Source: an uncultured Lachnospiraceae bacterium
Lineage (GTDB): Bacteria; Bacillota; Clostridia; Lachnospirales; Lachnospiraceae
NCBI GenBank assembly: GCA_950022375.1
Contig: CATLLF010000008.1
Span: 1 to 64,000 of the forward strand
Direction of reading: 5' to 3'
Length of the DNA: 64,000 nt
Below, one piece after another: positions 2,622 to 28,963 of the stretch. A model generated the notes under the pieces. The model saw only the letters and a program-made list of their open reading frames with translations, was not told the origin of the DNA and searched no databases. Position numbers and translations under genes: made by a program. Position 1 is the stretch's first letter. Each line of letters opens with the position of its first letter.

Positions 2622-2651
2622 CGCCCGCTGCTGGAAAAGCAGCGGACGCGA
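2622..2651 (-). terminator. GC-rich hairpin downstream of paralog 2 stop
   Basis: gcgcccgctgctgg-aaaa-gcagcggacgcg immediately 3' of the minus-strand gene ending at 2683. A-run on the plus strand 5' of it. Confidence 0.3.
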
Positions 2652-2682
2652 AAAGATTTTTAATATTTACCTGTAAGAAAAG

Positions 2683-4388: not shown

Positions 4389-4776
4389 TCAAAATCTCCT
4401 TTCTGGTTGTTTGGATCATTGTTTAGTTTCTTTTTGTCCTCCTTCCCCATAAAATGAGTTTATCCGCCTGCAAAATGACTTAACCTATGTACAAAGATAT
4501 AGAAATTGTAAATCTCATAATGCATAAAACGGACTTTTTTAATTATACTGTATATAAGCCATGAATGCATATAGGGAAATTTCACAAATTTTAGATAAGA
4601 TTATCAGACACAATACATAAAAATAGTTAAGATATGGAATAAGAATAGGGAAAATTTGGGTAGTATGGATGTTACTAGAAAAGACAGAAAAATCGGAGTT
4701 GGATGTAAAATACTAAAATTGGGATAATATTACTTATTATAACTAATTTATATTTGCAAACAGGGGGAGATTTTTT

Positions 4777-5676
4777 ATGCAGCATGAAAATGATTACGGA
4801 TACATACGAGAATGTGAAAAAATACCACTTTCTTTTCCGCCGCAGCATCAAGATCGACAACCAGGATTTGAATATTTCATGGAGCCGAAACCAATATCGA
4901 AACGAGCTTGGCACGAAAAAAAGTTAAGAGGAAAAACAGCGGTTATTACAGGAGGAGACAGCGGAATTGGAAGGGCTGTTGTCTATGATTTTGTCAGGGA
5001 AGGTGCGTATGTTGCGATAATATATTACGATGAAGAACAAGATGCAAAAGAAACTGCAGATAAGGTTAGACAAATGGGCGGAGAATATTTGTTGATCAAG
5101 GGAGATTTAAAAGAGCGATGTTTTATTAAAGAGTGTATTGATTGTGTGATAAAACGTTTTGGGAAAATTGATATTCTGGTCAACAATCATGCAGTTCAAT
5201 TTGTACAGCAGAGTATTCTTGATATTTCGCCAGAACAATTAACGCTGGTATTTCAAAATAATATTATTTCGTATTTTTACTTGATACAAGCTGCTTTGCC
5301 CTACATGAAAGAAGGGAGCAGTATTATCAATACAACGTCGGTAACAGCATACGAAGGAAATAAAGAATTAATCGATTACAGTGCAACAAAAGGAGCAGTG
5401 GTTTCTCTGACAAGGTCTCTGGCGCTTTCTCTAGTTGAGAGAGGAATCCGTGTAAATGCTGTTGCGCCTGGTCCAATCTGGACTCCTTTGATTCCGGCTT
5501 CTTATTCGGCAGAAGCGGTTTCCACTTTTGGTCGAAAAACATCGCGGGTGCCGATGATGCGGGCAGGTCAGCCTTGTGAGGTTTCGCCTTGTTATGTTTT
5601 TCTTGCGTCGGATGATGCTTCTTATATGACAGGGCAGGTAATGCATCCAAATGGCGGAACGATTGTCGGATCGTAA
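4777..5676 (+). CDS. SDR-family NAD(P)-dependent oxidoreductase (YhdF/YghA-like)
   Basis: TGGDSGIGRA Rossmann motif, NNHA, and YSATKGAV (YxxxK catalytic motif). N-terminal extension typical of the YhdF/general-stress-protein subgroup. Confidence 0.85.
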   Translation: MQHENDYGYIRECEKIPLSFPPQHQDRQPGFEYFMEPKPISKRAWHEKKLRGKTAVITGGDSGIGRAVVYDFVREGAYVAIIYYDEEQDAKETADKVRQMGGEYLLIKGDLKERCFIKECIDCVIKRFGKIDILVNNHAVQFVQQSILDISPEQLTLVFQNNIISYFYLIQAALPYMKEGSSIINTTSVTAYEGNKELIDYSATKGAVVSLTRSLALSLVERGIRVNAVAPGPIWTPLIPASYSAEAVSTFGRKTSRVPMMRAGQPCEVSPCYVFLASDDASYMTGQVMHPNGGTIVGS

Positions 5677-5691
5677 AATTTTTTGTTGAAT

Positions 5692-5726
5692 CCCCTATCC
5701 CTGGTAGGATAGGGGATTTTTTTGAT
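5692..5726 (+). terminator. Intrinsic terminator between the SDR gene and paralog 3; possibly bidirectional
   Basis: cccctatcc-ctggtag-gataggggatttttttg, with an A/T run on the 5' side too. Confidence 0.7.
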
Positions 5727-5772
5727 TCCATAAGAGGAATGCTACAGGGGGGCATTCTGGTAATTCACCATT

Positions 5773-7776
5773 TTATGGAGTTGTGTTCGTTCCTCCGCCG
5801 GAAGAATCTGCGGCGGGAATTGTCTGCGTTGTGCCATCTGCCAGTTTTATTGTTACTTGAACGAAGTAAGCTGTTGTACCTGCCTCGTTGACAGTAACCG
5901 TACAAGAAGCGGAAGTAGAAACTGGAGTTGTACCTCCTTCCAGATACCAGCTGTAGGAAGTTACTGTTGCGCCCTCTGGGAGACCTTCAACGTCTGCAGT
6001 CATTGTAACAGATGCAGAACCAGTGATAGAACCACCAGTTACAACAGCAGATGTGGTTATTGTAACAGCGTTGCCATTTACAACTGGATTTGCAGTAATA
6101 GAAGAACCTGTGGAAACAGATACATTTGTTGTAACCTTTACGGTTGGGGATGTAGGCTCTGGTTCTTCCGGTGTACCGCTCGGAGAAGGAGACGGCTCTT
6201 CTGGTGTACCGCTAGGGGAAGGAGACGGCTCTTCTGGTGTACCGCTAGGAGAAGGAGACGGCTCTTCTGGTGTACCACTAGGAGAAGGAGACGGCTCTTC
6301 TGGTGTACCACTAGGAGAAGGGGACGGCTCTTCTGGTGTACCGCTAGGAGAAGGAGACGGCTCTTCTGGTGTACCACTTGGAGAAGGAGACGGCTCTTCC
6401 GGCGTACCGCTCGGAGTTGGTTCCGGTGTTGGAGTGGATGGGTTCGATGGTGTTGATGGATTGGATGGTGTAGATGGCGTTTCGGTTGGTGTTGTTACAG
6501 TGGTGTTCTCACCTGGCTTTACAGTAGAAGCATTGTTGCCGTCCAGATCTGTGTTGACAATTTCCTGATCTGTTTTGTTATCGGCCTCTACTTTAACACC
6601 TGCGTCCTGACGGATTACCGTATTTTCAGCACCCTTGTTTACTTCCAGCTTTATATCAGCTTTTGCGCTGACTTCAACAGCAACTTCTGTTGTGATTTCA
6701 GCACCTTTCGCTTCCTTCTCAACATTTAATTTAACGTCGGAAGCCTCGCCGCGGATCGCTGCTTTTACTGGTTTTAACAGGTTGATAATGCTTTCTACTG
6801 CCGCTTTTGCAGCTTCAATTACAACATCAGCATGAACATTCAGTACTACTGTTACCTCTGCTGCAACTTTTGCACCAGAAGCAGTTTCCTCGACAACAAC
6901 CGGAACAGCTTCTTTTGTGCTGCCGCTCAATGTTACCTCACCTTTTGCAGCGATGCTGACATTGGAAATGCTTCCGCCACCGCCGACAATATTAAGCTTT
7001 GGAGCAGCGATTGCAGAACTCGGTGCGAAAGTTACATTTTTCACTTGCGCTTTGTCTGCGACAACAAGTCTTGCGTTCGGTGCAGTAAAGCGGAAGAAGT
7101 TACCAACCGCACGCTCAAAGAACGTAGAGTCTTTGATCTGTTCTACATTGATCTGCTTAAAACGGCCGGAGTTGTCAACATCCGCATTTGGAGCGTTGAT
7201 GGTCAGTGTTCTGCGGGTGTAGTTGTAAGGCTTGATAATAAAATTGGTTTCCTTGTCTGTCACGATATGGATGTCGGTGCAGTCGCGATTTGCAAGAGCC
7301 GCATTTAACTGGCTCTGTGTGCGCGCTACAGCATATCCTTCCTTATCGCTTGTCACTTGGATTTTTACCCATTCGGTAGAAGCAGTGATGTACTTTTCAC
7401 CGGCAACTTTATCTTTTTTCCACGCATTCATGTTCTTTGTATTTGCGAATGCCAGAGCGCGGATTTCAAAGCTGCCTGCATAGACAGGGTATACATGTCC
7501 GTAACGGGAAGATATAACCCCGGTGGTATTGGTCTGCTGGTTTACTTCCCACCAGACGATGCCTGTTGTTTTTCCTTTTCCAAGCTTGGTCTGAATAATC
7601 TGGGGATCGAAATTAAACGAGTCTCCAACTGCCATTGTATTATTTTTTGGCAGTACTTTGATACCAAGCTTTGTGATGTCGTTTTTCTGTGCTGCAGATG
7701 TCGGAACAGATGGAACCGTCATTGCGAGCATCATAACAAATACGAGGAAAAACGCCAATCCCTTCTTTTTGCTCAT
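5773..7776 (-). CDS. Secreted surface protein, paralog 3 of 3 (contains an 8x PSPSPSGTPEE linker)
   Basis: ATG at 7776 preceded by AAAGGAG. MSKKKGLAFFLVFVMMLAMTVP signal peptide. Same conserved N-terminal and central domains as paralogs 1 and 2. The Pro-rich linker is expanded to 8 tandem 11-aa units. C-terminal Ig-like domain. Confidence 0.8.
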   Translation of the reverse strand: MSKKKGLAFFLVFVMMLAMTVPSVPTSAAQKNDITKLGIKVLPKNNTMAVGDSFNFDPQIIQTKLGKGKTTGIVWWEVNQQTNTTGVISSRYGHVYPVYAGSFEIRALAFANTKNMNAWKKDKVAGEKYITASTEWVKIQVTSDKEGYAVARTQSQLNAALANRDCTDIHIVTDKETNFIIKPYNYTRRTLTINAPNADVDNSGRFKQINVEQIKDSTFFERAVGNFFRFTAPNARLVVADKAQVKNVTFAPSSAIAAPKLNIVGGGGSISNVSIAAKGEVTLSGSTKEAVPVVVEETASGAKVAAEVTVVLNVHADVVIEAAKAAVESIINLLKPVKAAIRGEASDVKLNVEKEAKGAEITTEVAVEVSAKADIKLEVNKGAENTVIRQDAGVKVEADNKTDQEIVNTDLDGNNASTVKPGENTTVTTPTETPSTPSNPSTPSNPSTPTPEPTPSGTPEEPSPSPSGTPEEPSPSPSGTPEEPSPSPSGTPEEPSPSPSGTPEEPSPSPSGTPEEPSPSPSGTPEEPSPSPSGTPEEPEPTSPTVKVTTNVSVSTGSSITANPVVNGNAVTITTSAVVTGGSITGSASVTMTADVEGLPEGATVTSYSWYLEGGTTPVSTSASCTVTVNEAGTTAYFVQVTIKLADGTTQTIPAADSSGGGTNTTP
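6161..6424 (-). repeat. 33-bp tandem repeat x8 (coding; PSPSPSGTPEE units inside paralog 3)
   Basis: ggctcttctggtgtaccgctaggagaaggagac repeated head-to-tail with a few synonymous/third-base differences. Confidence 0.9.
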
Positions 7777-9623: not shown

Positions 9624-10481
9624 ATGGTTCGGTCGGAAAATCTTATATTTGAATATATCAGGCGCGACGAGGAAGGGAATGTAGAATCGATTACAAAAGC
9701 TCTCGATGATGTTTCGATCACAATTTCCAAGGGCGATTTTGTGGCGATTCTTGGACATAATGGTTCTGGAAAATCAACGCTTGCAAAACATATTAACGCA
9801 TTGCTTGTTCCAACAGAAGGGACGCTTTTTGTGGATGGAATGGACACAAAAAACGAGGAGAAGATCTGGGAGATTCGGCAGGCTGCTGGTATGGTATTTC
9901 AAAATCCTGACAATCAGATTATTGCGACGGTGGTTGAGGAGGATGTTGGCTTTGGACCGGAAAATCTCGGCGTGCCGACAGAAGAGATCTGGGAGCGTGT
10001 AGAGAAAAGTCTGCGGGCAGTCGGCATGTACGAATATCGGAAGCATTCGCCAAATAAGTTGTCCGGCGGTCAGAAACAGAGAGTTGCAATTGCGGGGATT
10101 ATGGCGATGAAACCACAGTGTATTGTGTTGGACGAGCCTACAGCAATGCTTGACCCAAACGGGCGCAAGGAAGTAGTTCGGACGGTGCGGGAGCTAAACC
10201 AAAAAGAGGGCGTGACAGTACTTTTAATTACGCACTATATGGAAGAGGTAATTTATGCGGATAAAGTGATTGTGATGGATGACGGAAAGATTGTGATGCA
10301 GGGAACGCCGCGGGAGATTTTTGCTCAGGTGGAAAAGCTGAAAAGTTACCGGATGGATGTGCCGCAGGTAACAGAGCTTGCATACAAGCTAAAACAGGCA
10401 GGAATGCCGTTGCCGGATGGGATACTTTCGATTGAGGAATTTGTTGAGGCTGTTCGAGTGTGTGCAAAATCAGTAAGATAA
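9624..10481 (+). CDS. ecfA1: Energy-coupling factor transporter ATPase EcfA1
   Basis: Walker [23 protein letters not shown], Walker B VLDEPT, and the C-terminal EcfA-specific region. First gene of the ecfA-ecfA'-ecfT set. Confidence 0.9.
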
Positions 10482-10653
10482 GTAAGACAGCCAAAAAACA
10501 GCATATTAAGAGGACAATTACTTATTAGGATTTTTCAGGTAAGTGGAAGTTGAAGTTTTCGGGTGTGTGCAAAATCAGTAAGATAAGTAAGACAGCCGAA
10601 AAACAGCATATCAAGAGGACGATTGTTTATTAGGATTTTTCAGGTAAGTGGAA
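10458..10653 (+). repeat. Tandem duplication of ~91 bp (two copies, ~94% identical, period 105 bp) spanning the ecfA1 stop codon
   Basis: gtgtgtgcaaaatcagtaagataagtaagacagcc...ttattaggatttttcaggtaagtggaa at 10458-10548 and again at 10563-10653. Confidence 0.85.
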
Positions 10654-16754: not shown

Positions 16755-17147
16755 TTGGCTAAGGGAAGATATTACGGAACCGGTAGAAGAAAGAGCAGTG
16801 TTGCCAGGGTTTACCTTGTAGCAGGCACCGGAAAAATTACGATCAATAAAAGAACAATCGATGATTATTTTGGACTTGAGACTTTAAAGCTCGTTGTTCG
16901 TCAGCCGCTTGTTCTTACAGAGAGTATAGATAAATTTGATGTGCTTGTAAATGTGCGCGGCGGTGGTTTTACCGGTCAGGCAGGCGCAATTCGTCACGGT
17001 ATTTCAAGAGCGCTGCTTCAGGCGGATGCAGATTATCGTCCGGCATTAAAAAAGGCAGGCTTCCTGACAAGAGATCCAAGAATGAAGGAGAGAAAGAAGT
17101 ACGGTTTGAAAGCAGCACGCCGTGCGCCACAGTTCTCCAAGAGATAA
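16755..17147 (+). CDS. rpsI: 30S ribosomal protein S9
   Basis: [12 protein letters not shown]...[17 protein letters not shown]-terminus; 130 aa. Confidence 0.95.
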
Positions 17148-17154
17148 TTTCGTT

Positions 17155-17240
17155 ACAATAAAAGAGATTGGAAAAACCCTTGAAAGTCCAGTATTTTCAA
17201 GGGTTTTCTTTATGTCTGTACTTTCTAAAATTGCGGTGAC
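17155..17240 (+). repeat. Direct repeat copy A (~85 bp, includes the rpsI terminator)
   Basis: acaataaaagagattggaaaaacccttgaaagtccagtattttcaagggttttctttatgtctgtactttctaaaattgcggtgac matches 25865-25950 at ~90% identity, including ~30 nt beyond the hairpin. Confidence 0.8.
17177..17212 (+). terminator. Intrinsic terminator of rplM-rpsI
   Basis: cccttgaaa-gtccagtatt-ttcaaggg followed by ttttcttta. Confidence 0.8.
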
Positions 17241-17380
17241 TTGTATTCTTCTAGCAAATGAAATATAATAGAGTGGATTGTATTCCCAGTGCTGTAAAGA
17301 TGGTCGGTGTCTGGGCTGCTGCCTAAGACAGCAGTTAAGCCACAAGACGGAAGATATAAGAAGCGAGAAGGTGATAAGCA

Positions 17381-18067
17381 ATGAGAATTTTAGTTATAGA
17401 AGATGATCTGGCCTTAAGTGCCGGACTGTGTTTTGAATTGGACAGTAACGGCTATCTGACGGTGGCAGCGTATAACTGCCGGAAGGCCAGACAGCTTTTG
17501 CAGGAGGATCCATTTGACCTTGTGATTATGGATGTGAATTTGCCGGATGGCAACGGCTTTGATCTCTGTCGAGAAGTAAAAGCAATCAAACCGGAACTTC
17601 CTGTGATTTTTTTGACAGCAAACGATTTAGAGCAGGATGTGCTGAACGGATTTGATTTGGGCGCAGAGGATTATATTACAAAGCCGTTTCATATGCAGAT
17701 TTTTTTGCGGCGGGTAGAGGTCGCCATCCGCAGAGCAAGTAAAGTTACTATGACTCATGCGGATCGCTGGACTGACGGATTTCTTCTGCTTGATTTTGGC
17801 GCGCTGACTGCCGTGCGGGGCGGCGAAAAGCTGTCGATCACGCCCAACGAATATAAGTTGCTGAAAGTATTGACAGAGAATGCAGGCAACATCATTACCA
17901 GACAGCTTTTGTTGGAACGGCTGTGGGATTGTGATGGGAATTTCATTGATGACCACACACTTACTGTGACGATGAATCGGCTTCGGGCGAAGATCGAGAA
18001 TGACAATCATACCTATATTAAAACCATCCGGGGTATGGGGTATATATGGACAGGAGGCAAACAATGA
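17381..18067 (+). CDS. OmpR-family response regulator (BceR-like)
   Basis: Receiver domain with the phospho-acceptor Asp in VIMDVNLPDG, plus a C-terminal winged-helix Trans_reg_C region. Stop overlaps the HK start (ATGA). Confidence 0.9.
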   Translation: MRILVIEDDLALSAGLCFELDSNGYLTVAAYNCRKARQLLQEDPFDLVIMDVNLPDGNGFDLCREVKAIKPELPVIFLTANDLEQDVLNGFDLGAEDYITKPFHMQIFLRRVEVAIRRASKVTMTHADRWTDGFLLLDFGALTAVRGGEKLSITPNEYKLLKVLTENAGNIITRQLLLERLWDCDGNFIDDHTLTVTMNRLRAKIENDNHTYIKTIRGMGYIWTGGKQ

Positions 18068-19083
18068 AAAAGCACGCAAAAGCTTTGAAAATTTTGATGG
18101 TTTTGGCAGCTGCGGTGCTTTTTTCTTTGCTGTGCTGGCTATTGTGGGCATTTGTTCCCCGTTCCAGTGTTCGTTACAGCCTGTTAGCTGTGACAGGTGG
18201 TATTTTTGTATTAGCCGGTCTGTGGATATGGTTTTGGCAGAGACAGATCTTTCACTTTGCAGATGAAATATGTGATACGCTGGATGCCTTGATTTCCGGG
18301 AGACAGCCGGAGGTGGAGCGGCCTTATGAGGATAGCGTAACAGCCAAGGTACAGGGAAAGCTCCTGCAGTACTATGATATTATGAACGAGGGCAAAGTGC
18401 AGAGCCAGCGGGATAAGCAGACCATTCAGGAGCTGGTCAGTGATATTTCTCATCAGGTGAAAACTCCGATTGCCAATATTCATATATTTACCGGCATCCT
18501 TCAGCAGCATCGGCTGACAGAAGAAAAGCGGGCGGAATTTCTGGAAACCATGGCGTCACAGATCAATAAATTGGATTTTTTAATGCAGTCTTTGATCAAA
18601 ATGTCCCGGCTGGAAACAGGGACCTTTGTTCTGCACATAGAAGAAGCACCTCTGGATAAGACCATTGCTCAGGCGATCAGTACCGTGTGGGCGAAAGCGG
18701 ACAAAAAAAATATCCAGTTGTCGGCGGACTGCGCGCCATCGGTTACTGTGCAGCATGACCCTAAGTGGACAGCGGAGGCTCTGGGCAATATCCTGGACAA
18801 CGGGGTAAAATACACCCCGGAAGGCGGCAGCGTTTCTGTGTCTGTTCGCCCGTGGCAATTCTATACGCGAATTGATATTTCCGATACTGGTATTGGCATC
18901 CATGAGGAGCATTATCACGATGTTTTTCAGCGTTTTTATCGGGCGCAGGAAACAGCAGCCGAAGAAGGCGTTGGTCTGGGTCTGTATCTTGCCAACGGAA
19001 TCATTACGCGGCAGAAAGGCTATATCAGCGTAAAATCAAATTACGGAAAAGGCACCACCTTCTCTGTCTATTTGCTGAGTTGA
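18064..19083 (+). CDS. Intramembrane-sensing histidine kinase (BceS-like)
   Basis: Two N-terminal TM helices with almost no extracellular loop and no HAMP/PAS. H-box HQVKTPIANIHIF, N/G boxes (GVGLGLYLANGII...GKGTTFSVYL). ATG at 18064 overlaps the RR stop; the longest ORF begins at 18046. Confidence 0.85.
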   Translation: MKKHAKALKILMVLAAAVLFSLLCWLLWAFVPRSSVRYSLLAVTGGIFVLAGLWIWFWQRQIFHFADEICDTLDALISGRQPEVERPYEDSVTAKVQGKLLQYYDIMNEGKVQSQRDKQTIQELVSDISHQVKTPIANIHIFTGILQQHRLTEEKRAEFLETMASQINKLDFLMQSLIKMSRLETGTFVLHIEEAPLDKTIAQAISTVWAKADKKNIQLSADCAPSVTVQHDPKWTAEALGNILDNGVKYTPEGGSVSVSVRPWQFYTRIDISDTGIGIHEEHYHDVFQRFYRAQETAAEEGVGLGLYLANGIITRQKGYISVKSNYGKGTTFSVYLLS

Positions 19084-19126
19084 GTAAATAACGTATATGA
19101 AAAAGGGAGAGAGGAAGTATAAAACA

Positions 19127-19792
19127 ATGGAAATCGTAACGGTACATCAATTAAAGAAATACTTTGGAAAGGGAGAGACACAAGTCAAAGCCTTGGATGG
19201 TATCGACCTTTCTATTGAGAAAGGTAAGTTTACCGCCATTATTGGTGCATCCGGCTCCGGCAAAACCACTTTGTTAAACATGATCGGTGGGCTGGATACC
19301 CCTGATGAGGGGGAAGTAATCGTGGATGGTGTAAATCTGTCCGGTTTGAAGGAAAAAGAGCTGGCTGTGTTTCGCCGCAGCAAAGTAGGCTTTGTGTATC
19401 AGAATTTTAATCTGGTTCCAACATTGACCGTAAAAGAAAACATTCTGTTCCCTCTTAGTCTGGCTGGCAGTACACCAGATCAGCGTTTCTTTGCAAATGT
19501 CATGCAGCAGCTTCGGCTGGAGGAACGGCTGAATGCCTACCCCCACGAGCTTTCCGGCGGCGGGCAGCAGCGGGTAGCTATCGCCAGGACACTAATTGCT
19601 AAACCAGCCATTCTTCTTGCCGATGAACCTACTGGAAACCTGGATGTAAAAAGTGGACAAAATGTGTTAGGACTTTTGAAAATGTCCGTAGAGACCTATC
19701 ACCAGACACTTATTATGATCACCCACAATCTTGAGATCGCACAGATGGCTGACCGTGTGCTTCGCATGGAAGATGGTCGCCTGAAGGCGTAA
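19127..19792 (+). CDS. ABC transporter ATP-binding protein, MacB/FtsE-like (BceA-like), copy 1
   Basis: GASGSGKTT, LSGGGQQRVAIAR, LLADEPTGNLD. Likely start MEIVTVHQL at 19127 after AGAGGAAG. Confidence 0.85.
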   Translation: MEIVTVHQLKKYFGKGETQVKALDGIDLSIEKGKFTAIIGASGSGKTTLLNMIGGLDTPDEGEVIVDGVNLSGLKEKELAVFRRSKVGFVYQNFNLVPTLTVKENILFPLSLAGSTPDQRFFANVMQQLRLEERLNAYPHELSGGGQQRVAIARTLIAKPAILLADEPTGNLDVKSGQNVLGLLKMSVETYHQTLIMITHNLEIAQMADRVLRMEDGRLKA

Positions 19793-19802
19793 GGAGGTTG
19801 TC

Positions 19803-22340
19803 ATGCTTGCAAATAACAACCTAAAAATATGTCACACATTTGCGTGGCGAGATTTCAAATTTCACAAAGCAAAAAACTTACTGCTGGCTTTTGCGGTGGT
19901 TTTGATTACAGGACTGTATGCCTTCACTTTTCTTCTGGGCAGCTCAGTAGAAAATGCGTTTCTGCTTAATTATGAGTACCGATATGGCTCCACGAGTCAC
20001 ATCCTCTACCATGGACTGACCGCACATCAGGCAGATAAATTAGCGCAGCATCCCAATGTAAAAAGCACGGTTCGGATCAGCGCTCTGGGTCAGCTCTCTG
20101 ATGAGATGATGGGTGTTCGCAGTGTTAAGCTGGCAGTAACCGATCAGGACTATGCCAAGAGCATCCTCTCTGTTCCTACAACGGGGCGTTTGCCGGAAAA
20201 AGCGGGAGAAATCGCTCTGGATGAATTTACCATGGACTCTCTGGGGGTTCTTCATGAACTGGGTGCTCCGGTGTCTATTCAGTGGACAGATGGCAAGGGA
20301 GAAAAGCACAGTACTGATTTTATCCTCTGCGGATGGTGGGCAAGCCCCACAAACTTCACAGAAGCTTGTGCTTGGGTGACAGCAGAGTGTGCTGCCAGAC
20401 TTCTGACCGGATACCCGGATACAGCATCCGTCACAATGGGGGTCGATCTCCATCAGCCAAAGGAATTGGAGCAGCAGGCGCAGCAGATCATAACAGATCA
20501 GGGCGTAAATCAGGTTACTTACACTACCAATTTGGCCTATAACGAAGCCAGAATGGAAATGGCAAGTAAGCAGGCAACACCGTTCTACATTCCTGCATTG
20601 GTTGTGCTTTTGTGTGGTTTTTTGATGATTTACAGTATCATTCATATGACCATGGATCAGGATACTCGCTTTTTTGCGGGTCTGAAAACTTTGGGCATGA
20701 CACCGCGGCAGATCCGATGGTTTCTGTTGGAAAAGGCCGCGTTGCTCTCTCTTTTGGGTCTGCTCCCCGGCTGGCTGATGGGATTTGGCATTCACTATTT
20801 GGTTACACCGCAGATCGTGACTGGCATGGAGCAAAACCCGGCAATCTACTTCCTGTCCTGGGAGCCGTTCGCTCTCGCAGTACTCAGTACCTTCGGAACC
20901 GTTTTACTGGCGTACTTTCTGCCTGCTGCTCGGACAGGCGGAATGATACCGACACAGATGTTGCGGGATTTGGATGAACGAATGCCGAAAGGAAGAGGGC
21001 GTAACAGTACCGGGAAAGTCAGTATTTTTCGGCTGGCCTTTCGCTCCCTGTGGAGAAATAAAGGGCGTACCCTTCTTTCATTGCTGTCTTTGCTGTTCTC
21101 CCTTCTATTGCTCTGCTCTACCTGGATTCGCTACACCAGCTACGACGAAGCACTGTACTTAAACGGGATGTCTCCGTGGGACTACACCATCGAGGATGGC
21201 TCTGCGGCTTCCACCGTACAGCGGTATAACCCCAATAATCGTGCTATCACAGAACAGATTGTCAGCGATCTGCGTGGACGCAGTGAAGTTTTGGAAGTAA
21301 GCGTCCTGAAATCTAAGGAAGTGAAGCTGACGGCTTCTGATGAGCTGCGCCAGCGAATCGTGGATTTTTACAATGAACCTTACGACGAAACCATGACCCG
21401 CAGAGAAAGTCAGGCGGCCTACCCCGATTGGTGTACCGGTTTGGAGTGCCTGGAACAGACAGGAAGCTATTATGGTATAGTGATTGCGTTGGAGGACGCC
21501 TACCTGCGGTATGTGCTGGATAACTGTCCAGTCACCAGCGGCGATTTTGACGCGGAACAGTTTGCGGATGGGCGGTATGTTGTGGCCGCAGGTGCTTATG
21601 CGGAGGGCGTGTCCTCGCCTGCTGCTGGAGAAACTGTGGAGCTGGGGGGAGAGCAACTTACTGTGCTGGCTTCTGTTATGGGGGATACCGCATTTTTAAG
21701 TGGAAGTAACAGTTTGGAGTCCAGCTTTCATCTGGCTTATTTTGTACCACTGTCCCTATTTGATCAGCTGTTCCCTGATGAGGGTATCCGTCAGCTGGCA
21801 GTCAACATTGACCATGGTGGGCAGGAGGAATTTGAACGCTATCTCAGTTTATATAAGCAGGGGTTGAATCGCGGGATTGGGGTTTGGATGCGCAGCGATT
21901 ATCAAGAAGCTTTCCAGAACGCCAGATTGAATGAATGCCTGCCGAAGCTGATTGTCGGGATTGTGTTGATGACCATTGGTCTGCTGAACTTTGCCAATAT
22001 GTTGGTTACAAAAACAATGGTGCGAAAAAAAGAATTTGCAGTCTATCAGAGCCTTGGTATGACAAGCAGACAGCTGAAATGGCTTTTGCTGACAGAGGGC
22101 TTGCTTCATGCGGTTCTTTTGACCGTAATTTTGCTGCCAGTAACTTTCTTTGTGACCTGGTTTGGGATGCCAGCAGTTTTTTCACAGATAAATACTTGGT
22201 GTATAACCTATCATTATACGCTGGCTCCTCTATGGGCAGCCTTGCCTATTATGCTGTTTATGGCAGTGGCAGTACCCCTAATGTGCTGTCGGTTTATTGA
22301 GAAAGGAAGCATTACAGAGCGTTTGCGGATCGCAGTGTGA
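19803..22340 (+). CDS. ABC transporter permease with two FtsX domains (BceB/MacB-type), copy 1
   Basis: 845 aa; TM helix then a large extracytoplasmic domain, repeated twice. FtsX-like 4-TM bundles with GLKTLGMTPRQI and SLGMTSRQLKW motifs. Confidence 0.8.
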   Translation: MLANNNLKICHTFAWRDFKFHKAKNLLLAFAVVLITGLYAFTFLLGSSVENAFLLNYEYRYGSTSHILYHGLTAHQADKLAQHPNVKSTVRISALGQLSDEMMGVRSVKLAVTDQDYAKSILSVPTTGRLPEKAGEIALDEFTMDSLGVLHELGAPVSIQWTDGKGEKHSTDFILCGWWASPTNFTEACAWVTAECAARLLTGYPDTASVTMGVDLHQPKELEQQAQQIITDQGVNQVTYTTNLAYNEARMEMASKQATPFYIPALVVLLCGFLMIYSIIHMTMDQDTRFFAGLKTLGMTPRQIRWFLLEKAALLSLLGLLPGWLMGFGIHYLVTPQIVTGMEQNPAIYFLSWEPFALAVLSTFGTVLLAYFLPAARTGGMIPTQMLRDLDERMPKGRGRNSTGKVSIFRLAFRSLWRNKGRTLLSLLSLLFSLLLLCSTWIRYTSYDEALYLNGMSPWDYTIEDGSAASTVQRYNPNNRAITEQIVSDLRGRSEVLEVSVLKSKEVKLTASDELRQRIVDFYNEPYDETMTRRESQAAYPDWCTGLECLEQTGSYYGIVIALEDAYLRYVLDNCPVTSGDFDAEQFADGRYVVAAGAYAEGVSSPAAGETVELGGEQLTVLASVMGDTAFLSGSNSLESSFHLAYFVPLSLFDQLFPDEGIRQLAVNIDHGGQEEFERYLSLYKQGLNRGIGVWMRSDYQEAFQNARLNECLPKLIVGIVLMTIGLLNFANMLVTKTMVRKKEFAVYQSLGMTSRQLKWLLLTEGLLHAVLLTVILLPVTFFVTWFGMPAVFSQINTWCITYHYTLAPLWAALPIMLFMAVAVPLMCCRFIEKGSITERLRIAV

Positions 22341-22422
22341 GAAGTACTTCTAACTGCCTGTGGCAGTTTCCGCTCACAGCAAAGACTATTTTGTGAAGAA
22401 GTACTATATTTTACACCGAGAA

Positions 22423-22492
22423 ATGCCTGAAATACGGCATTTCTCATCCAGATTTGAGTCGCGGCAAAGCCGCCTTTTTTTAAAAGGTACAA
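22423..22492 (+). terminator. Pair of hairpins with T-runs between the two ABC pairs
   Basis: gaaatgcctgaaatacggcatttct and gcggcaaagccgccttttttt. Confidence 0.5.
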
Positions 22493-22587
22493 AACCGTAC
22501 CTTTGTTGTACCTTCCCTGTAACATTGAACTGATAAAATATAATCAGAAAAGGGAAACGGATTCCCGGTTACAAGGAGGAAATACTT

Positions 22588-23259
22588 ATGGAAGCAATTT
22601 TGAAGGCTACCGGTCTTAAAAAATATTACGGAAAGGGTGAAGCGTTGGTCAAGGCATTGGATGGTATGGATCTGGAGATCGAGCGTGGTAAATTTACTGC
22701 GATTATTGGCACCTCTGGATCTGGAAAATCTACGCTGCTGAATATGCTGGGTGGACTGGATACTCCCAGCGAGGGCAGTATTCGAATTGGAAATACGGAA
22801 CTGGCAAAGTTAAATAGCGAACAGGCTACGATTTTCCGGCGCAATCACATCGGTTTCATTTTTCAAAATTACAATCTGGTGCCAGTACTCAGTGTTTGGG
22901 AAAATATAGTTTTCCCCATCTCTCTGGATGGTCGTAAGTCTGATGAAAAGTTTATCATGGAGATTGTTCGTCTGCTTGGTTTGGAGAAGAAGCTGGATTG
23001 TCTGCCGAACAATCTTTCCGGCGGACAGCAGCAGAGAGTGGCGATTGCCCGTGCGCTGGCCTCTAAGCCTGCTATTATCCTGGCGGATGAACCTACCGGT
23101 AATCTGGACTCAAAAACCAGTGACGATGTGATTGGGTTGCTGAAAATGACCAGCAAAGAATTTAACCAGACAATCGTGATGATTACCCATAACCCGGAAA
23201 TTGCACAGATGGCGGATCGTATTGTCCGAATTGAGGACGGCCGCATTGTGTCTCAATAA
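22588..23259 (+). CDS. ABC transporter ATP-binding protein, MacB/FtsE-like, copy 2 (~65% identical to copy 1)
   Basis: GTSGSGKST, LSGGQQQRVAIAR, ILADEPTGNLD. Confidence 0.85.
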   Translation: MEAILKATGLKKYYGKGEALVKALDGMDLEIERGKFTAIIGTSGSGKSTLLNMLGGLDTPSEGSIRIGNTELAKLNSEQATIFRRNHIGFIFQNYNLVPVLSVWENIVFPISLDGRKSDEKFIMEIVRLLGLEKKLDCLPNNLSGGQQQRVAIARALASKPAIILADEPTGNLDSKTSDDVIGLLKMTSKEFNQTIVMITHNPEIAQMADRIVRIEDGRIVSQ

Positions 23260-23269
23260 GGGGGGATGC

Positions 23270-25828
23270 ATGATGAAAACAGTATTCAAACCAATTCAAA
23301 CACTGAATCAGCGTACTTTTAAGAAAAATAGAGGTCGGAACCTAGTAGCGATCATCGCCATCTTAATGACTACGATTATGTTTACCACCCTCTTTACCCT
23401 GGCACAGAGTATAAGCAAAAACATGGTGGAAATGACATTCCGGCAAACTGGTTATGATGGTCAAGCATCCTTTAAGACCATCACCGCAGAGCAGTTTTCG
23501 TTGATCGCGAATCACCCCGATGTTGCAGAAGCCGGAGAAAGCCTTGTTCTTGGTCTTGCACAAAACAAAAAACTGGGTGGCAAACAGGTTGAGATCCGTT
23601 GGAGCAGTGACATCAATGCCAAGCATTCCTTTGCTATGCCTGCCACCGGAACAATGCCAACAGCATCGGATGAGATCGCTCTGGACACACGAATCCTCGA
23701 TCGCCTTGGTATTCCCCATCAGCTGGGGGAAACTATAACGCTGGAATGGCGCAAGGATCTTGCAAAGGATGAGTTAACCGCCTCCACCTTTACCCTCTGC
23801 GGTTTCTGGGAAGGCAACGAATCTGTCTATGCCAGCATGGCTTGGGTAAGCCGGGAATTTGCGGATGAGATGATCGGTGACTATGTTGCTGACGGAAAAA
23901 CAAGCATTTTAGGTCTGCATACCGCACAAGTGATTCTGCATAGCGACCGTAATATTGAGACCACCATGGAGAATATTTTGGCAGACACTGGACTGACGGA
24001 CTTGAAATTTGGCGTGAATCTGGCATATTCACCAGAGATGAATGCTACCGCAGCGCAGGAAAGCATTCCTATGTATTTGGGTATGGTGCTGGTGTTTCTT
24101 GCTGGCTATCTGATTATTTATAATATCTTTCAGATCAGCGTTACTGCCGACATCCAATTCTATGGAAAGCTGAAAACACTGGGAACTACCACGAAGCAGA
24201 TCAAGAAACTTATTTATGGTCAGGCAAACCGGCTGTGCGTGATCGGTATCCCAATGGGTCTTCTTCTGGGCTGGCTGCTGGGCATAGTGTTGGTTCCTGT
24301 GCTGATGGGACAGATGGAGGGCAATGCTGTGATTTCCTCCAATCCTGTGATTTTCCTTGGCTCTGCCCTTTTTGCATGGTTGACAGTTACGATTTCCTGC
24401 CTGCGTCCGGCAAGGCTGGCTGGTAAGGTTTCTCCGATCGAAGCTCTGCGGATGAGTGATGCCGCCGCAAGCAAGAAGAAAAGCAAACGCACCCGGAATG
24501 GCGCTTCCATTACCAGTATGGCTTGGGCGAATCTGGGGCGGAACAAAAAACGGACAGTGACAGTTATATGCTCTCTGAGCTTGGGGTTGGTTTTACTCAG
24601 CTGTTTCTACGCTAAGAATGCTGCTTTTGATATGGAAAAATACCTGTTTGAGCTGACGATCAGTGACTTCCAGCTGGATGATCGCAGCAGTGCAGATTAT
24701 ATTGGCGGATATGACCCTTATGGTTTCACCCTGAATGCTGAACTGGTGGCATCCGTGGAAGGATTGGCTGGTTTGGAAGCGATTGGTCATCAATATTCTC
24801 ATCAATTTAAACTGACACTGGATGATGAGACTGTGCAGAATATCGGCGCCTTCTATACACAGGAAATGCTGGACGATTGGGCAACTTACGATTCGTCCGG
24901 TTCTGCTCAGATAAAAAACGCCATGAAAACCCGTGAAGTGATCGGTGTACTGTATGGAATGGACGGTATCCCTCTGGATGCAATTACGCATGAGAGATAT
25001 TTGCTCTCCGGCAGCTATGATGCAGAAAAATTTGCCAGCGGCGACTATGTGTTGGCTATTGGTCCTGCCATAGATTCCACAGACACAGAAAGAAAGACTG
25101 CATTGCCTGTTCCTACCGTTGGAAGCAGTATTGCGCTTGAAAATCGCACCTATACGGTAATGGCTGTTGTATATCCGCTGCAAGCTGTGGAGGAAGGAGC
25201 TTATGAAGGCGGTGTACAAAATCAGCACTGCATGAGCTTTATTATTCCTGCTTCAGTATTCCGGCAGCAGTGGCCGGAGAATACGCTGCGAAGACTGTTC
25301 TTCAATGTGGACGATAAGCATATTCCCGCAGCACAAGAGATGCTCGATGTGTATACCAAGACCATAGACACCAGTCTGCCTGTGACATCCCGCAAAACCA
25401 TGACAGAGCAGTATAAGACAGAAACACAGGCGTCGGCAGTTATGGGAAATACCATCAGTGTGATTATTGCTCTGGTGGGTGTGCTTAACTTTATCAATTC
25501 TATGGTTACAGCCATTGTTTCACGCAAAAAAGAGTTTGCCATGATTCAGTCCGTGGGAATGACCAAGCGTCAGCTGCGGAAGATGCTGATTTGTGAGGGA
25601 CTGGATTACGCAGCGATTACGCTGATCGTTTCTTATATTGTCAGCACTCTAGCCGTTGGGATCGGTGTTCGTGCCATAACAGCCAATGAGTTCAGCACTT
25701 TCCATTTTACTCTGATGCCGCTGATGATTTGTACCCCGATCCTTCTGGCTTTTGCGGTGCTGATCCCGTTTCTGTGTTTCAAGAATTTAGAAAAGCAGAG
25801 CATTGTTGAGCGATTGAGAACAGAATAA
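23270..25828 (+). CDS. ABC transporter permease with two FtsX domains, copy 2
   Basis: ATG at 23270 after AAGGGGGG. About 850 aa with the same topology as copy 1 (GKLKTLGTTTKQI, SVGMTKRQLRKM). Confidence 0.8.
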   Translation: MMKTVFKPIQTLNQRTFKKNRGRNLVAIIAILMTTIMFTTLFTLAQSISKNMVEMTFRQTGYDGQASFKTITAEQFSLIANHPDVAEAGESLVLGLAQNKKLGGKQVEIRWSSDINAKHSFAMPATGTMPTASDEIALDTRILDRLGIPHQLGETITLEWRKDLAKDELTASTFTLCGFWEGNESVYASMAWVSREFADEMIGDYVADGKTSILGLHTAQVILHSDRNIETTMENILADTGLTDLKFGVNLAYSPEMNATAAQESIPMYLGMVLVFLAGYLIIYNIFQISVTADIQFYGKLKTLGTTTKQIKKLIYGQANRLCVIGIPMGLLLGWLLGIVLVPVLMGQMEGNAVISSNPVIFLGSALFAWLTVTISCLRPARLAGKVSPIEALRMSDAAASKKKSKRTRNGASITSMAWANLGRNKKRTVTVICSLSLGLVLLSCFYAKNAAFDMEKYLFELTISDFQLDDRSSADYIGGYDPYGFTLNAELVASVEGLAGLEAIGHQYSHQFKLTLDDETVQNIGAFYTQEMLDDWATYDSSGSAQIKNAMKTREVIGVLYGMDGIPLDAITHERYLLSGSYDAEKFASGDYVLAIGPAIDSTDTERKTALPVPTVGSSIALENRTYTVMAVVYPLQAVEEGAYEGGVQNQHCMSFIIPASVFRQQWPENTLRRLFFNVDDKHIPAAQEMLDVYTKTIDTSLPVTSRKTMTEQYKTETQASAVMGNTISVIIALVGVLNFINSMVTAIVSRKKEFAMIQSVGMTKRQLRKMLICEGLDYAAITLIVSYIVSTLAVGIGVRAITANEFSTFHFTLMPLMICTPILLAFAVLIPFLCFKNLEKQSIVERLRTE

Positions 25829-25864
25829 ATAGAATGATCTGCATTGGAGCAGATCGACAATGAC

Positions 25865-25950
25865 ACAATGAAAGAGATTGGAAAACCCCTTGAAAGTCCA
25901 GTGTTTTCAAGGGATTTCTTTATGTTTGTGTTTTCTGAAATTGTGGTAAA
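25865..25950 (+). repeat. Direct repeat copy B (~85 bp, terminator-containing) at the distal end of the Bce-like module
   Basis: acaatgaaagagattggaaaaccccttgaaagtccagtgttttcaagggatttctttatgtttgtgttttctgaaattgtggtaaa. Confidence 0.8.
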
Positions 25951-26064
25951 AAGTGTTAAATTTTGAAGTGCAGCACATAAATAGCCTGTAAAGTCTTATT
26001 TTAAGCGGTTTGAAGTTCTTTAAGAGATAACCAGAAAAACGATGCAGATGTATATAAAAAAATT

Positions 26065-26092
26065 CCGCAGGTTTTGTCTGCGGAGTTTTTTA
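26065..26092 (+). terminator. Orphan intrinsic terminator ~240 bp upstream of the MVP gene
   Basis: ccgcag-gttttgt-ctgcgg-agtttttta, with an A-run on the 5' side. No annotated gene ends here. Confidence 0.6.
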
Positions 26093-26164
26093 TATGTAGG
26101 AGTGCGAATGAAAAACAGTTGCTGACACAGCAAGCAGGAAGAAAAAACTTTCTTGCACTTAACC

Positions 26165-26193
26165 TTAACATTTCAGAAGATTAGGAGTATAAT
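26165..26193 (+). promoter_or_regulatory. Candidate promoter of the MVP-rtcB operon
   Basis: TTAACA, 17 nt spacer, TATAAT. Confidence 0.35.
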
Positions 26194-26327
26194 AAGATTT
26201 AAATAATCTGGATTAAGGGGGAATTATATGTGTGATGCAAAAAATATGAAAAAACATACGAAGATATACAAAAACTGCAGCCAGAGGATACTTTACAGTA
26301 TTTTTGTTTAATGAAAGGAGGATTGCT

Positions 26328-28922
26328 ATGTCAGAAATGCAGAGAGAGCGCGATCTTGTGTTGAATCCAAATGAATATGCTTATGTGCTGGATAAGACAA
26401 AGGGCTTGATTTCATGTGTTGTTGGTTCTTACAAAATGAGTTTGTCAACATCGGATTCGCTGGTTGTATTTAACGAGAAAACAAAGAGGTTTGAGGAGGC
26501 TTCCTTTTCCGATGCCATTACAGTGTTTGTATCCGCGCCGGAAAACTGGTATATCACATTAAAAAATCCAACAAAGGACGACCGTCATCCAATGCCGGGA
26601 ACTTCAAATCCGCTTCCTGAATTAAAGATTGGAAAAAAGGTAAATATCCGCGGCAATGTGTCTTTTGCTTTGTATCCAGGGCAGATGGCAAAAGCGATTC
26701 AGGGACATCGTCTGCATTCAAACCAATATTTGCTGGCGAGAGTTTACGATGCGGATGCGTTGGAGAAAGGGAAATCCACTACAAACAATATAGCAGCAGG
26801 AACAGTAATTTCTGAGGTTGGACAGGAAACTACAGCACCGGGAACCAGTGCAAAAAACAATGTGGTTGGAACAAAAGAAACCGAGGTTTTTGAGAAAAAA
26901 TATACAATAGGGCAGCTTCTTGTAATCAAGGGTACGGAAGTGCCGTTCTATATTCCGCCGACGGGGATTGAAGTAATTCCGGTTGATGGGGAAAAAGACC
27001 AGTATATCCGGGATGCCGTGACGTTGGAGAAACTGGAATATTGTATTTTAAAGGACGAGCAGGGGAACAAAAAATACATACATGGCGCGGCGGTTGTATT
27101 TCCGCAGCCAGATGAAACATTTGTTAAAAACCCAAAAGGCGGCTATAAATTTAAGGCGATTGAGCTGTCGGATATCAGCGGCATTTATGTCAAGGTAATC
27201 GCGGATTATAAAGAGAATGGAAAGCAGTACCGGGCGGGAGATGAATTGTTTATTACAGGAAAAGATCAGATGATTTATTATCCGCGTGAAGAACATGCGA
27301 TTATTGATTACAATGGAAGAGTCGTGCATCATGCGATTGCGATTCCGCTCGGAGAGGGAAGATATGTGCTCGACCGCAAAACAGGAAATATTAAGATGGT
27401 GAAGGGTGCTGCTATGTATCTGCCTGATCCAAGATATGAAGTGATTGTAAAAAGAAAGTTGACCGCCGAGCAATGCAATTTGTGGTATCCAGATAACCAG
27501 GAGGTTTATGAATATAATGTAGGTGCTTCAATGCCAGTTGCAGCAGGTGTTTCCAGACAAAAAGAACTGCTTAGAGGAGTGTGTCCAACCTCATCAATGG
27601 ATGTGCTTTACAATGGTTTTTTGGGGCAGGAGAACGCTGTTGTTGAGGATGGCGGCTTCTCAAGAAGCAATACTTACAGCAAACCGCGGACAATTACGAT
27701 CGATAATAAGTATGACGGCGTGGTAAGTATTGATATATGGACAGGATACGCGATCCATGTGATCTCAAAAAACGGCAGCAGAAAAGTGATTACCGGCGCG
27801 CAGACCTACTTGATGGAATATGATGAAACGCTGGAGGTGCTTGAACTTTCAACAGACAGACCAAAAGAGACAAATCATACGTTAAAAACAGTGTATTTGC
27901 GTGTGAACAACAATAAAGTTGCAGATAGAATCACCGTTGAGACAAAAGATTTTGTCAATGTTTTGCTGGAAATTTCGTACTGTGTGGATTTTTTGCCGGA
28001 ATATAAGGAGCGGTGGTTCAATGTTGAGAATTATATAAAATATATCACAGACCAGCAACGTCCGCTGTTGAAGCGCGAAGCGAAACTTCACACGATTGAA
28101 GATTTTTGTGAGAATGTTACGGATATTGTACGCAAGGTCGCTTTGAATCTTACGGACGAATTTCTTGACAGGCAGGGTACTGATGATAATGTGAGTTTTT
28201 CAAAACCGCTGGATGGTTTGGATCGTCAGGAACACTCGGATAAGAAAACAAGAACAGGAAGATTTTTCCCAGAAAACGGGATGCTGATTCACGATGTGGA
28301 AGTGATAAACGTCTGTGTGGATGACCGGGTGCAGGATATGCTTTTTGAGCATCAGCGAGGGCTTGTGAAAAAATCGCTGGAATTGTCCAATGCCAACAAA
28401 GAAGTTGAAGTGGCTGCGCGCCTTGCAAAAGTAGATCGAACAAAGGCAGATATTGAGTATGAAGTGAAAGCTTACCAGCTGGAACTGAAAAATAAAATTG
28501 CCAGAGAGATGCTTGCGCAGCAGGAAGAATTAAAACGGCTTGAGGAAGAAGCAGAACAGGCGGCGTGGACTGCGAAACAGAGATTGCAGGAACTGCTTGA
28601 TTTTGTTCAGAAATCAGAGCTTGACCGACAAAAGGAACAGACGCAGATGGAGCTTGACCGCAGAAGAGAATCGGACAGCTTGGATATTGCAAAACAGACA
28701 GCTTATACCGATGCGGTAAGAAAAGTAGTTGAGGCTGTCAGCAAGGATCTTGCAGCGTCCATGCTGTCGGCGGCAAATGCAAGTTTAATGTCGGATGTGG
28801 CAGAAGCGATGGGACCTTATGCGATTGCAAACGGAGAATCTGTCGCCGAGGTGACAAATACATTGCTGCGCGGCACATCGCTGGAAGGATTGTTAGAAAA
28901 GTTAGGGGTTAATCATTTATGA
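26328..28922 (+). CDS. Major vault protein (MVP) homologue
   Basis: 864 aa from the ATG after AAAGGAGG. N-terminal [30 protein letters not shown] resembles MVP [41 protein letters not shown] resembles HYCTVANPVSRD. The shoulder region [52 protein letters not shown] resembles MVP [51 protein letters not shown]. A ~150-aa E/K/R/Q-rich coiled coil follows, in the position of the cap-helix. No signal peptide. Confidence 0.8.
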   Translation: [864 protein letters not shown]

Positions 28923-28963
28923 TGTGGTAGAGTTTAAACAGTTTTTTGGAAGGGGAAAATTTC

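Follow-up and report, generated by a model that had tools for sequence, protein, structure and literature searches.

The closest described counterparts of the locus studied here are the McRImecD-1 and McRImecD-2 islands of Macrococcus caseolyticus, which carry resistance cargo at the 3′ end of rpsI, the gene of ribosomal protein S9, and have imperfect direct repeats of 160 bp (PMC5341023). They encode a tyrosine integrase related to those of the Staphylococcus aureus pathogenicity islands (SaPIs), helix-turn-helix (HTH) regulators and a primase of the VirE/VapE type; a second island accompanies them in tandem, and a variant lacking one of the repeats cannot excise (PMC5341023). We have analyzed a stretch of 64,000 nucleotides, referred to below as the window, from an uncultured Lachnospiraceae bacterium (contig CATLLF010000008.1), in which a module of two-component system and ATP-binding cassette (ABC) transporter genes lies downstream of rpsI between two imperfect direct repeats of 83 nt. 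We think it likely that about 8.9 kb of this DNA (17148-26030) is stacked, decayed mobile DNA at an rpsI hotspot, in which the repeats are copies of the left end ("E-left") of integrative elements that target rpsI, here called E elements, and the module is horizontally acquired cargo.

The window shares with the McRImecD islands the target at the 3′ end of rpsI, the displaced end of that gene at the distal repeat and a resistance cargo, here a putative peptide-antibiotic transporter operon. The full-length E elements of other species (L086 and L088; comparison loci are numbered with the prefix L) have the same kind of SaPI-like backbone, that of a phage-inducible chromosomal island (PICI). The differences are that the window has no integrase or primase, that its repeats start 8 nt past the rpsI stop codon (17145-17147) and so exclude the rpsI core, that its second copy has no core, and that the cargo is a two-component/ABC transporter operon rather than mecD, in a host from a gut clostridial lineage.

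The same gene is the target of IMESag-rpsI and of integrative and mobilizable elements (IMEs) and integrative and conjugative elements (ICEs) of streptococci (PMC5090054, PMC5357655, PMC4701971), and ICE_RhoA2-183_rpsI is an rpsI-integrated ICE of Roseburia hominis and Dorea formicigenerans, both Lachnospiraceae (PMC12904643). The likeness to our loci lies in the target gene and in the pile-up of elements with resistance cargo, which we find in L084, L085 and L087. However, the known elements are intact and have kept their integrase, relaxase or conjugation genes, whereas the window holds only end fragments and cargo. Decayed ICE derivatives that are flanked by attachment (att) sites and can be mobilized in cis, known as CIMEs, have been described for the ICESt1/ICESt3 locus. 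The window is similar in that its cargo has no recombination or transfer genes, is bounded by putative attachment-site repeats, and appears to have been left at a hotspot after accretion and deletion. It differs in that only the outer pair of sites (17131-17147 and 26014-26030) retains the core, and the copy to the right of the module does not. The inserted block is an ordinary decayed genomic island of a known hotspot type, that of rpsI-targeted resistance islands with extended imperfect direct repeats.

Results

The Repeat Pair in the Window

The repeats occupy positions 17155-17237 (copy A) and 25865-25947 (copy B). Alignment and a repeat finder agree on a gap-free match over 83 nt with 74 identities (89%), the copies lying 8710 nt apart. 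Copy B starts 36 nt past the last permease gene, whose stop codon ends at 25828. Each copy contains a hairpin, CCCTTGAAAGTCCAGT[A/G]TTTTCAAGGG (17177-17203 in A, 25887-25913 in B), preceded by a run of A and followed by a run of T, which gives it the shape of a bidirectional intrinsic terminator. Outside the hairpin the likeness continues for 22 nt on the upstream side and 34 nt on the downstream side, and the pair is therefore more than two look-alike hairpins. The longest perfect run common to both copies is 16 nt. The original prediction, made from the letters of the window, had described two such copies at about 90% identity, a similarity running past the hairpin, and a gene order of response regulator, histidine kinase and two ABC units followed by MVP and RtcB genes. 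These descriptions are borne out by the alignment and by Pfam.

The pair does not resemble a transposon target-site duplication, which would be a perfect repeat of 2-14 bp accompanied by terminal inverted repeats and a transposase. Here the repeat is of 83 nt at 89% identity, with no transposase, and such an origin is further disfavored because the repeat is itself a unit common to many species (see below). Rfam gave no RNA family for the unit, either in an E-value scan of 14-30.5 kb or in a scan of 18 related loci at the gathering threshold. Downstream rRNA or tRNA was considered as a cause of the conserved sequence and of the frequent contig ends, and was rejected since the Rfam scans contained none. 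A scan of viral contigs for the hairpin gave no matches, and megablast of the module and of one complete small element against plasmids also gave none.

The Repeated Unit in Other Lachnospiraceae

We scanned for the exact 27-nt hairpin using one genome per species. It was found in 62 stretches from about 58 Lachnospiraceae species genomes. In 50 of its 63 occurrences it is separated from the rpsI stop codon by a linker of 29 nt, the RpsI proteins of these hosts being 76-100% identical to that of the window. Outside the window species it occurs almost only at rpsI or at junctions with a pseudo-rpsI end. This distribution bears on the idea of a dispersed family of REP-like or terminator repeats, placed around the module by coincidence, which the original prediction had raised against itself. 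Such a family would explain the shape of the hairpin and nothing else. A degenerate 43-nt pattern built from copies A and B has just these two matches in the 64-kb window (and none in 100 dinucleotide-preserving shuffles), and the representative genome of the species carries the hairpin at the same two sites only (L012, L069). We give this explanation next to no credence.

The mean identity over ten species is 75% for rpsI DNA, 89% for noncoding E-left and 92% for the accessory gene next to it, which encodes a protein of 135-140 aa without a Pfam family. That E-left and its neighboring gene are better conserved than rpsI points to horizontal spread, and not to a housekeeping terminator. We take the repeated unit, which consists of the 29-nt linker and the bidirectional terminator hairpin with some 35 nt after it, to be the left end of rpsI-targeting integrative elements rather than the native rpsI terminator.

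Three loci (L035, L052 and L051) contain inserts of 1.6-2.9 kb of which E-left forms the left end. The right end (E-right) is conserved between them (...TTTATGCGGTTTGRAGTTCNNNAAGAGATAG, ...TAGCACACAAATAGCCTGTAAAGCCTTATTTTATGCGGTTTGRAGTTCNNNAAGAGATAG). A pseudo-rpsI 3′ end closes each insert, after which comes the host's own terminator, different in each. The true rpsI of L053 is followed directly by a terminator and a DUF4160-type gene, both of which come only after the insert in L035, and the two loci appear to be an unoccupied and an occupied site for the E element. When left and right junctions are compared, the crossover falls within AAGAGATA, at the stop codon of rpsI. Insertion severs rpsI from its own terminator, and so the E element would supply a replacement.

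The original prediction had taken the repeat for the native rpsI terminator, duplicated at insertion. A related explanation is that the unit is a vertically inherited, functionally conserved rpsI terminator of the Lachnospiraceae, copied once here, with no mobile family at all. The fixed distance from rpsI in 50 loci and the good fold as a bidirectional terminator would agree with it, as would the diverged hairpins with compensating stem changes found after rpsI in L079 and L084. However, a native terminator should not be conserved at 89-92% together with its adjacent gene when rpsI is at 75%, nor lie within an insert that ends in a pseudo-rpsI end and is followed by a separate host terminator, with L053 unoccupied. 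Moreover, L032 and L033, whose RpsI proteins are 95% identical to that of the window, have different linker subtypes, and the true rpsI is followed by other terminators in L042, L053 and L078. In the window, the true displaced rpsI end and another terminator are found at 26014-26091. We consider a native terminator very improbable, and that part of the original prediction is not upheld. L032, L033 and other species have a single copy of the hairpin, and the 2-3.2 kb that could be read downstream of it contain no module.

Hairpins CCCGGAAAGTCATATTTTCCGGG and CCCCCGGAAAATCAAGGTTTTCCGGGGG lie directly after rpsI or a displaced rpsI end in L079 (5530-5600) and L084 (3670-3730). With compensating changes in the stem, they resemble the E hairpin and seem to be related to it, which implies that the exact-match scan caught one subfamily of units only. 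Repeats of the form GTAGCACACA(N)ATAGC are present in both E-left and E-right (L034, L035, L049, L052 and others; 25969-25985 in the window), three of them in E-left, and are candidate binding sites for the arm domain of the integrase or for the small regulator of the element. The conserved sequence past the hairpin was also considered as an rRNA promoter; this was rejected, as it is the promoter of an element gene.

E Elements and Other Mobile DNA at rpsI

Short E elements have three genes: a small conserved gene, a resolvase-type serine recombinase and a sigma-70-like gene. Full-length elements of at least 12.2 kb are found in L086 and L088. There E-left and the small conserved gene come first after rpsI, and then a tyrosine integrase encoded on the other strand, an XRE-like regulator, a VapE-type primase, an HNH gene, a small-terminase-like gene, the resolvase and the sigma factor, in that order. 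The full-length elements resemble PICIs and SaPIs in being at least 12 kb long and site-specific, with an integrase, a repressor-like regulator, a VapE primase, and HNH and small-terminase-like genes. They differ in that they also carry the resolvase-type serine recombinase and the sigma-70-like gene, and the window differs in retaining just 166 nt of such an element. From this gene order we classify the full-length layout as PICI-like, and the short forms are its derivatives by internal deletion. A narrow search of the literature on rpsI-targeting integration in Lachnospiraceae, which yielded PMC12904643 only, gave no description of the E family, and the family appears undescribed.

Tandem E-E junctions occur in L049 and L065, and elements are also piled up at rpsI in L087. 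The phage lysis genes for holin and endolysin abut a pseudo-rpsI end and E-left in L071 and L030. In L084, L085 and L087, a displaced rpsI end of 55 nt is adjoined by Tn916-type Xis-Int-Int elements; these recombine about 55 nt inside rpsI, whereas the E family does so at the stop codon. A deletion in L011 spans the junction and, as in the window, ends just before the second hairpin, and in isolate D16-36 two neighboring copies of E-left are identical over about 90 nt. In Lachnospiraceae, rpsI is thus a busy attachment hotspot.

Transporter loci other than that of the window stand behind a truncated E-left at two places. L060 has a set of response regulator, histidine kinase and ABC genes at +2.0 to +4.3 kb past the hairpin, and L046 has an ABC ATPase and a permease open reading frame (ORF) at +0.9 to +3.3 kb. 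Their proteins are just 36-62% identical to those of the window. Such cargo thus recurs at the rpsI hotspot. At 15.7-18 kb in L087, Xis and two Tn916-type integrases lie beside the displaced rpsI end, ahead of a PICI-like element, and the cargo of the Tn916-type element includes BacA (undecaprenyl-diphosphatase) and an ABC-2 permease. With BacA, bacitracin-type resistance cargo is also found at this hotspot.

The Inserted Block in the Window

The rpsI-end motif is found in the window only twice, as AGTTCTCCAAGAGATAA at the end of rpsI and as AGTTCTTTAAGAGATAA in the displaced copy (Table 1). These cores bound the outer block of 8.9 kb and not the 83-nt pair, and elements in L035 and L052 are bounded by the same layout; that in L051 is bounded by a pair of pseudo-rpsI ends. 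On the left, remnant A has homologues immediately behind rpsI in 50 loci of other species, and its homology to the element family ends at 17239. On the right there is a mini-element of 166 nt. Homology to E-left continues for another 30 nt past copy B, to about 25977 (91% match to consensus positions 39-129), E-right occupies 25972-26030 (91% match to consensus positions 42-99), and the right ends of five elements, those of L035, L052, L051, L065 and L049, show 82-88% identity to 25969-26029. The fusion of the two ends passes through a GTAGCACA..ATAGC repeat common to both, and the mini-element appears to have been gutted by deletion between two such short internal repeats.

Table 1. Features of the rpsI locus in the window
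Feature	Position	Strand	Basis or remark
rpsI (ribosomal protein S9)	16755-17147	+	Pfam Ribosomal_S9, E = 7e-51
Recombination core, attL side: last 17 nt of rpsI, AGTTCTCCAAGAGATAA	17131-17147	+	core motif search
E-left remnant A: 29-nt linker, hairpin 17177-17203, 36 nt beyond	17148-17239	+	holds copy A, 17155-17237
Module left end: promoter and leader ORF remnant	17240-17380	+	sequence CTTGTATTC... from 17240
Module promoter	-35 TTGTAT 17241-17246, 17-nt spacer, -10 TATAAT 17264-17269	+	
Frameshifted 3′ remnant of 61-aa HTH leader ORF	17282-17380	+	
Response regulator, OmpR-type (Response_reg + Trans_reg_C)	17381-18067	+	Pfam
Histidine kinase, HisKA + HATPase_c, 339-345 aa, short N-terminal membrane part	18064-19083	+	Pfam
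First ABC ATPase (ABC_tran)	19097-19792	+	Pfam
First permease, 845 aa, two FtsX domains	19803-22340	+	Pfam
Internal terminator-like hairpin between transporter pairs	22461-22481	+	
Second ABC ATPase	22588-23259	+	Pfam, gene calls
Second permease, 851 aa, two FtsX domains	23273-25828	+	Pfam, gene calls
Module right end	25829-25864	+	residual hairpin 25836-25855 after 64-nt deletion of the module's own terminator
Gutted 166-nt mini-element	25865-26030	+	E-left from its 9th base, fused to E-right
Displaced pseudo-rpsI 3′ end AGTTCTTTAAGAGATAA, attR core	26014-26030	+	core motif
Pre-insertion downstream sequence	26031-26296	+	terminator, promoter, dead ORF fragment
Bidirectional terminator	stem-loop 26064-26084, A-run 26056-26062, T-run 26086-26091		fold z = -4.9
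Promoter	26165-26193	+	
Dead 5′ fragment of small antitoxin-like ORF	26229-26296	+	stop at codon 2
MVP-shoulder-domain protein	26328-28922	+	Pfam; outside the repeat-bracketed unit
RtcB	28946-30163	+	Pfam; outside the repeat-bracketed unit

The sequence 26031-26296 has homologues in L042 and L078, where they adjoin the true rpsI, and in L085, where the homologue follows the displaced rpsI end. Since homologous DNA is adjacent to rpsI in other species, 17148-26030 is inserted relative to an older rpsI-terminator arrangement. The original prediction was therefore correct in regarding the module as a repeat-bracketed insertion downstream of rpsI, the foreign DNA running from the stop codon ending at 17147 to 26030. 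The contrast of empty and occupied sites that it expected is seen between species, with the true rpsI directly before the homologue of 26031-26296 in L042 and L078, and with L053 compared with L035. It is not seen within the species: at all nine sampled places (21 contigs) the module is present and its junctions do not differ. A scan of metagenomes gave no match to an A/B recombinant site, nor to an attR/attB junction pattern that would also fit occupied genomes; as the latter count is zero too, the species is evidently absent from that metagenome collection, and neither negative bears on the existence of module-less sites.

The original prediction had placed the ancestral rpsI terminator, as a possibility, directly before the MVP-rtcB locus. 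The homology to L042 and L078 argues for a different neighbor, probably a terminator and a small toxin-antitoxin-like locus. In L042 an intact small ORF and then a zeta-toxin-like gene stand where the window has MVP-RtcB, which seems to have replaced a toxin-antitoxin pair. MVP-RtcB is further accessory DNA, and housekeeping genes resume at about 30.5 kb. We do not hold that the stem-loop at 26064-26084 is necessarily the primordial rpsI terminator of the species, as its homologue in L042 may be the left end of a small toxin-antitoxin element.

We found no domain of an integrase, a resolvase or a transposase at 14-40 kb of the window, and tblastn with the recombinases of the element family gave no match, in agreement with the original prediction. 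The block is for this reason viewed as a decayed remnant and not an autonomous element.

Two other sets of repeats were seen upstream. Three paralogous genes of about 580-667 aa lie on the minus strand at 303-7776 (303-2306, 2683-4419 and 5773-7776), with blocks that are 76-85% identical; within one of the genes a 33-nt unit is repeated in tandem about ten times (especially 6128-6482). A 96-nt direct repeat, 94% identical and nearly tandem (10453-10548 and 10558-10653), is placed between two ECF-type ABC ATPase genes upstream of truA-rplM-rpsI.

The Transporter Module in Other Species and Strains

The nucleotide sequence of the module is 91-93% identical to those in L072, L078 and L079. For L078 the module is 93% identical, and rpsI only 73% identical to that of the window. 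A module that is far closer than rpsI between species indicates horizontal acquisition. Its GC content is 47.3%, compared with 42.9% for the window. The module stands behind rpsI in four species (the window, L078/L085, L079-82 and L084) and at unrelated places in at least two others (L072 and L076). The protein of the first permease is 93% (L078) and 91% (L085) identical where the module lies behind rpsI and a remnant of terminator, promoter and small ORF; 92% in L079-L082, behind rpsI, a related hairpin and an AlbA_2 gene; and 93% in L084, behind the displaced rpsI end and a relaxase fragment. At other places it is 89% identical in L072-L075 (between moaC and a glyoxalase gene), 84% in L076 (beside ackA-pta), 86% in L083 (beside an AAA_21/RloB pair, the upstream context lying beyond the visible sequence) and 60% in L077 (with an aminotransferase region on one side and a large glycosyl hydrolase gene on the other).

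The promoter segment of the module has homologues upstream of both the 93%-identical module of L084 and the 60%-identical module of L077. L084 retains a complete 61-aa HTH leader ORF between promoter and regulator gene, in which the window strain and the L001-type strains have two different internal deletions. The module's own terminator has lost 64 nt in the window strain, whereas the L001-type strains and L072 keep the longer form. These strain differences indicate that the module entered before the strains split and that its edges have been eroding since. Homology to the modules of other species stops at 25834-25842, and the residual hairpin at 25836-25855 has a fold energy of -11.1 kcal/mol, a 7-bp stem and no U-tract. 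The two ATPase/permease pairs are old paralogues, 64-73% identical in nucleotide sequence, and the spacer around the internal hairpin between them (22342-22477) is not conserved in the module copies of other species. The genes of the module were also called on contigs of conspecifics. Such contigs often end inside the module: L005 and L006 at 16460, L008 and L009 at about 12050, and L007 at 13436. The breaks fall at the same base twice, which suggests that strain mixtures or paralogous copies confuse assembly. Just downstream of the module in L079 (16130-16340) there are about three tandem units of some 100 nt, each with a promoter-like motif containing TATAAT.

The label "Bce-type" given to the module in the original prediction fits in one respect. 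As in BceRS-BceAB, the order is an OmpR-type regulator, a short membrane kinase, an ABC ATPase and an FtsX-family permease. However, there are two ATPase/permease pairs, and the permeases of 845 and 851 aa have two FtsX domains each, compared with about 650 aa, ten helices and one large extracellular domain in BceB. A scan of the module with NCBIfam gave generic matches only, below the cut-off, and no curated model passes. The module is Bce-like in layout only, and a role in resistance is putative, as a peptide-antibiotic transporter operon.

Origin of the Bracketing

Of the histories considered for the bracketing of the module, we favor accretion and later decay. Tyrosine integrases would have inserted one element after another site-specifically at the rpsI core. 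Each element would have come with its own E-left, giving a tandem array, and at least one of them would have carried the module as cargo. Later deletions would have removed the recombinases, the element interiors and the core or junction in front of copy B. Each ingredient is seen elsewhere: tandem arrays in L049, L065 and L087, the junction deletion in L011, and modules behind a truncated E-left in L060 and L046. That copies A and B derive from independent element ends is, in our estimate, little better than an even chance.

Several observations weigh against this account. Neither the core AAGAGATAA nor an element right end is found before copy B, in the window or in the L001-type strains, where matches are no better than in shuffled controls; a resemblance seen there by eye was dropped. 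Plain tandem integration thus fails for the 25864/25865 junction, and at least one extra deletion is needed. Copies A and B share a rare linker subtype, ACAATNAAAGAGATTGGAAAA, without counterpart in the two closest species, which fits duplication in situ as well. No genome was found with the module inside an element having both ends intact. Finally, the comparison genomes are mostly metagenome bins, and the comparison loci extend to at most 8 kb in the hairpin scan and to about 22 kb at most in the gene look-ups.

Duplication in situ is the main alternative, a version of the original prediction in which E-left takes the place of the native terminator as target. The module would have entered a single resident E-left, or the mini-element, with an 83-bp target duplication whose copies have since diverged to 89%; it could have come about by Campbell-type single crossover of a circle with a homologous 83 nt, or by repair of widely staggered breaks. 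That the copies cover exactly the same 83 bases, and that the native ends of the module abut them cleanly, fits such an event, as do the shared ACAATNAAAGAGATTGGAAAA linker and the missing core and right end before copy B. The neighboring identical copies in D16-36 show that local duplication or conversion of the unit happens. However, outside the hairpin the identity between A and B (86%) does not exceed that of either copy to the unit of L055 (86-88%), and five of their nine differences are at positions polymorphic among the copies of other species. The remaining differences are unique changes, and neither the comparison of A/B states nor the nearest-neighbor identities separated the two explanations. 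No known insertion mechanism yields an 83-bp target duplication, Campbell-type entry would also have put a right end and core before copy B, where neither is seen, and tandem arrays and junction-spanning deletions are observed elsewhere (L049, L065 and L011). We rate duplication in situ as possible but rather unlikely; either history is compatible with the general account of decayed mobile DNA stacked at rpsI.

A more speculative reading, to which we attach little weight, is that the unit of some 80-90 nt comprising rpsI core, linker and hairpin is a docking site common to PICI-like satellites, prophages and ICEs/IMEs, at which cassettes without recombinases are moved in trans. It is raised by the unrelated regulator-kinase-ABC modules behind a truncated unit in L060 and L046, and by the presence of the same module behind rpsI in four species. 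If this were so, the integrases or small resolvase of co-resident elements would capture and move unit-bracketed cassettes, and rpsI would be a family-wide exchange point for resistance and defense cassettes.

Efficient RecA-dependent recombination usually needs about 25-30 bp of identity. The original prediction had allowed that the repeats could mediate excision or amplification of the module, but they are poor substrates, with at most 16 identical bases in a row and with copy B lacking the core. Given these short perfect runs and the lack of a module-less contig among the conspecifics, repeat-mediated excision or amplification would be rare at best. On the preferred reading of accretion and decay, the module is probably fixed and immobile, with the hairpins acting only as terminators and insulators for rpsI and the module. 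Hairpin A would terminate rpsI, and the module would be driven by its own promoter. With the module's own terminator cut down, transcription of the permease gene probably stops at hairpin B in the window strain, and the old terminator at 26064-26084 would insulate the next promoter.

Discussion

The island type to which the window belongs is well known, and our analysis leaves the current understanding of it unchallenged. What the comparison adds is that a mobile-element end-piece can now be told apart from a housekeeping terminator. For annotation this means that the sequence just after rpsI in many Lachnospiraceae is mobile-element DNA and not core genome. The comparison also reveals a widespread family of PICI-like elements at rpsI in Clostridia of the mouse and human gut. 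Transfer of a putative peptide-antibiotic transporter operon has taken place between gut species with core genes more than 25% different, and the operon repeatedly lands at one ribosomal-gene hotspot.

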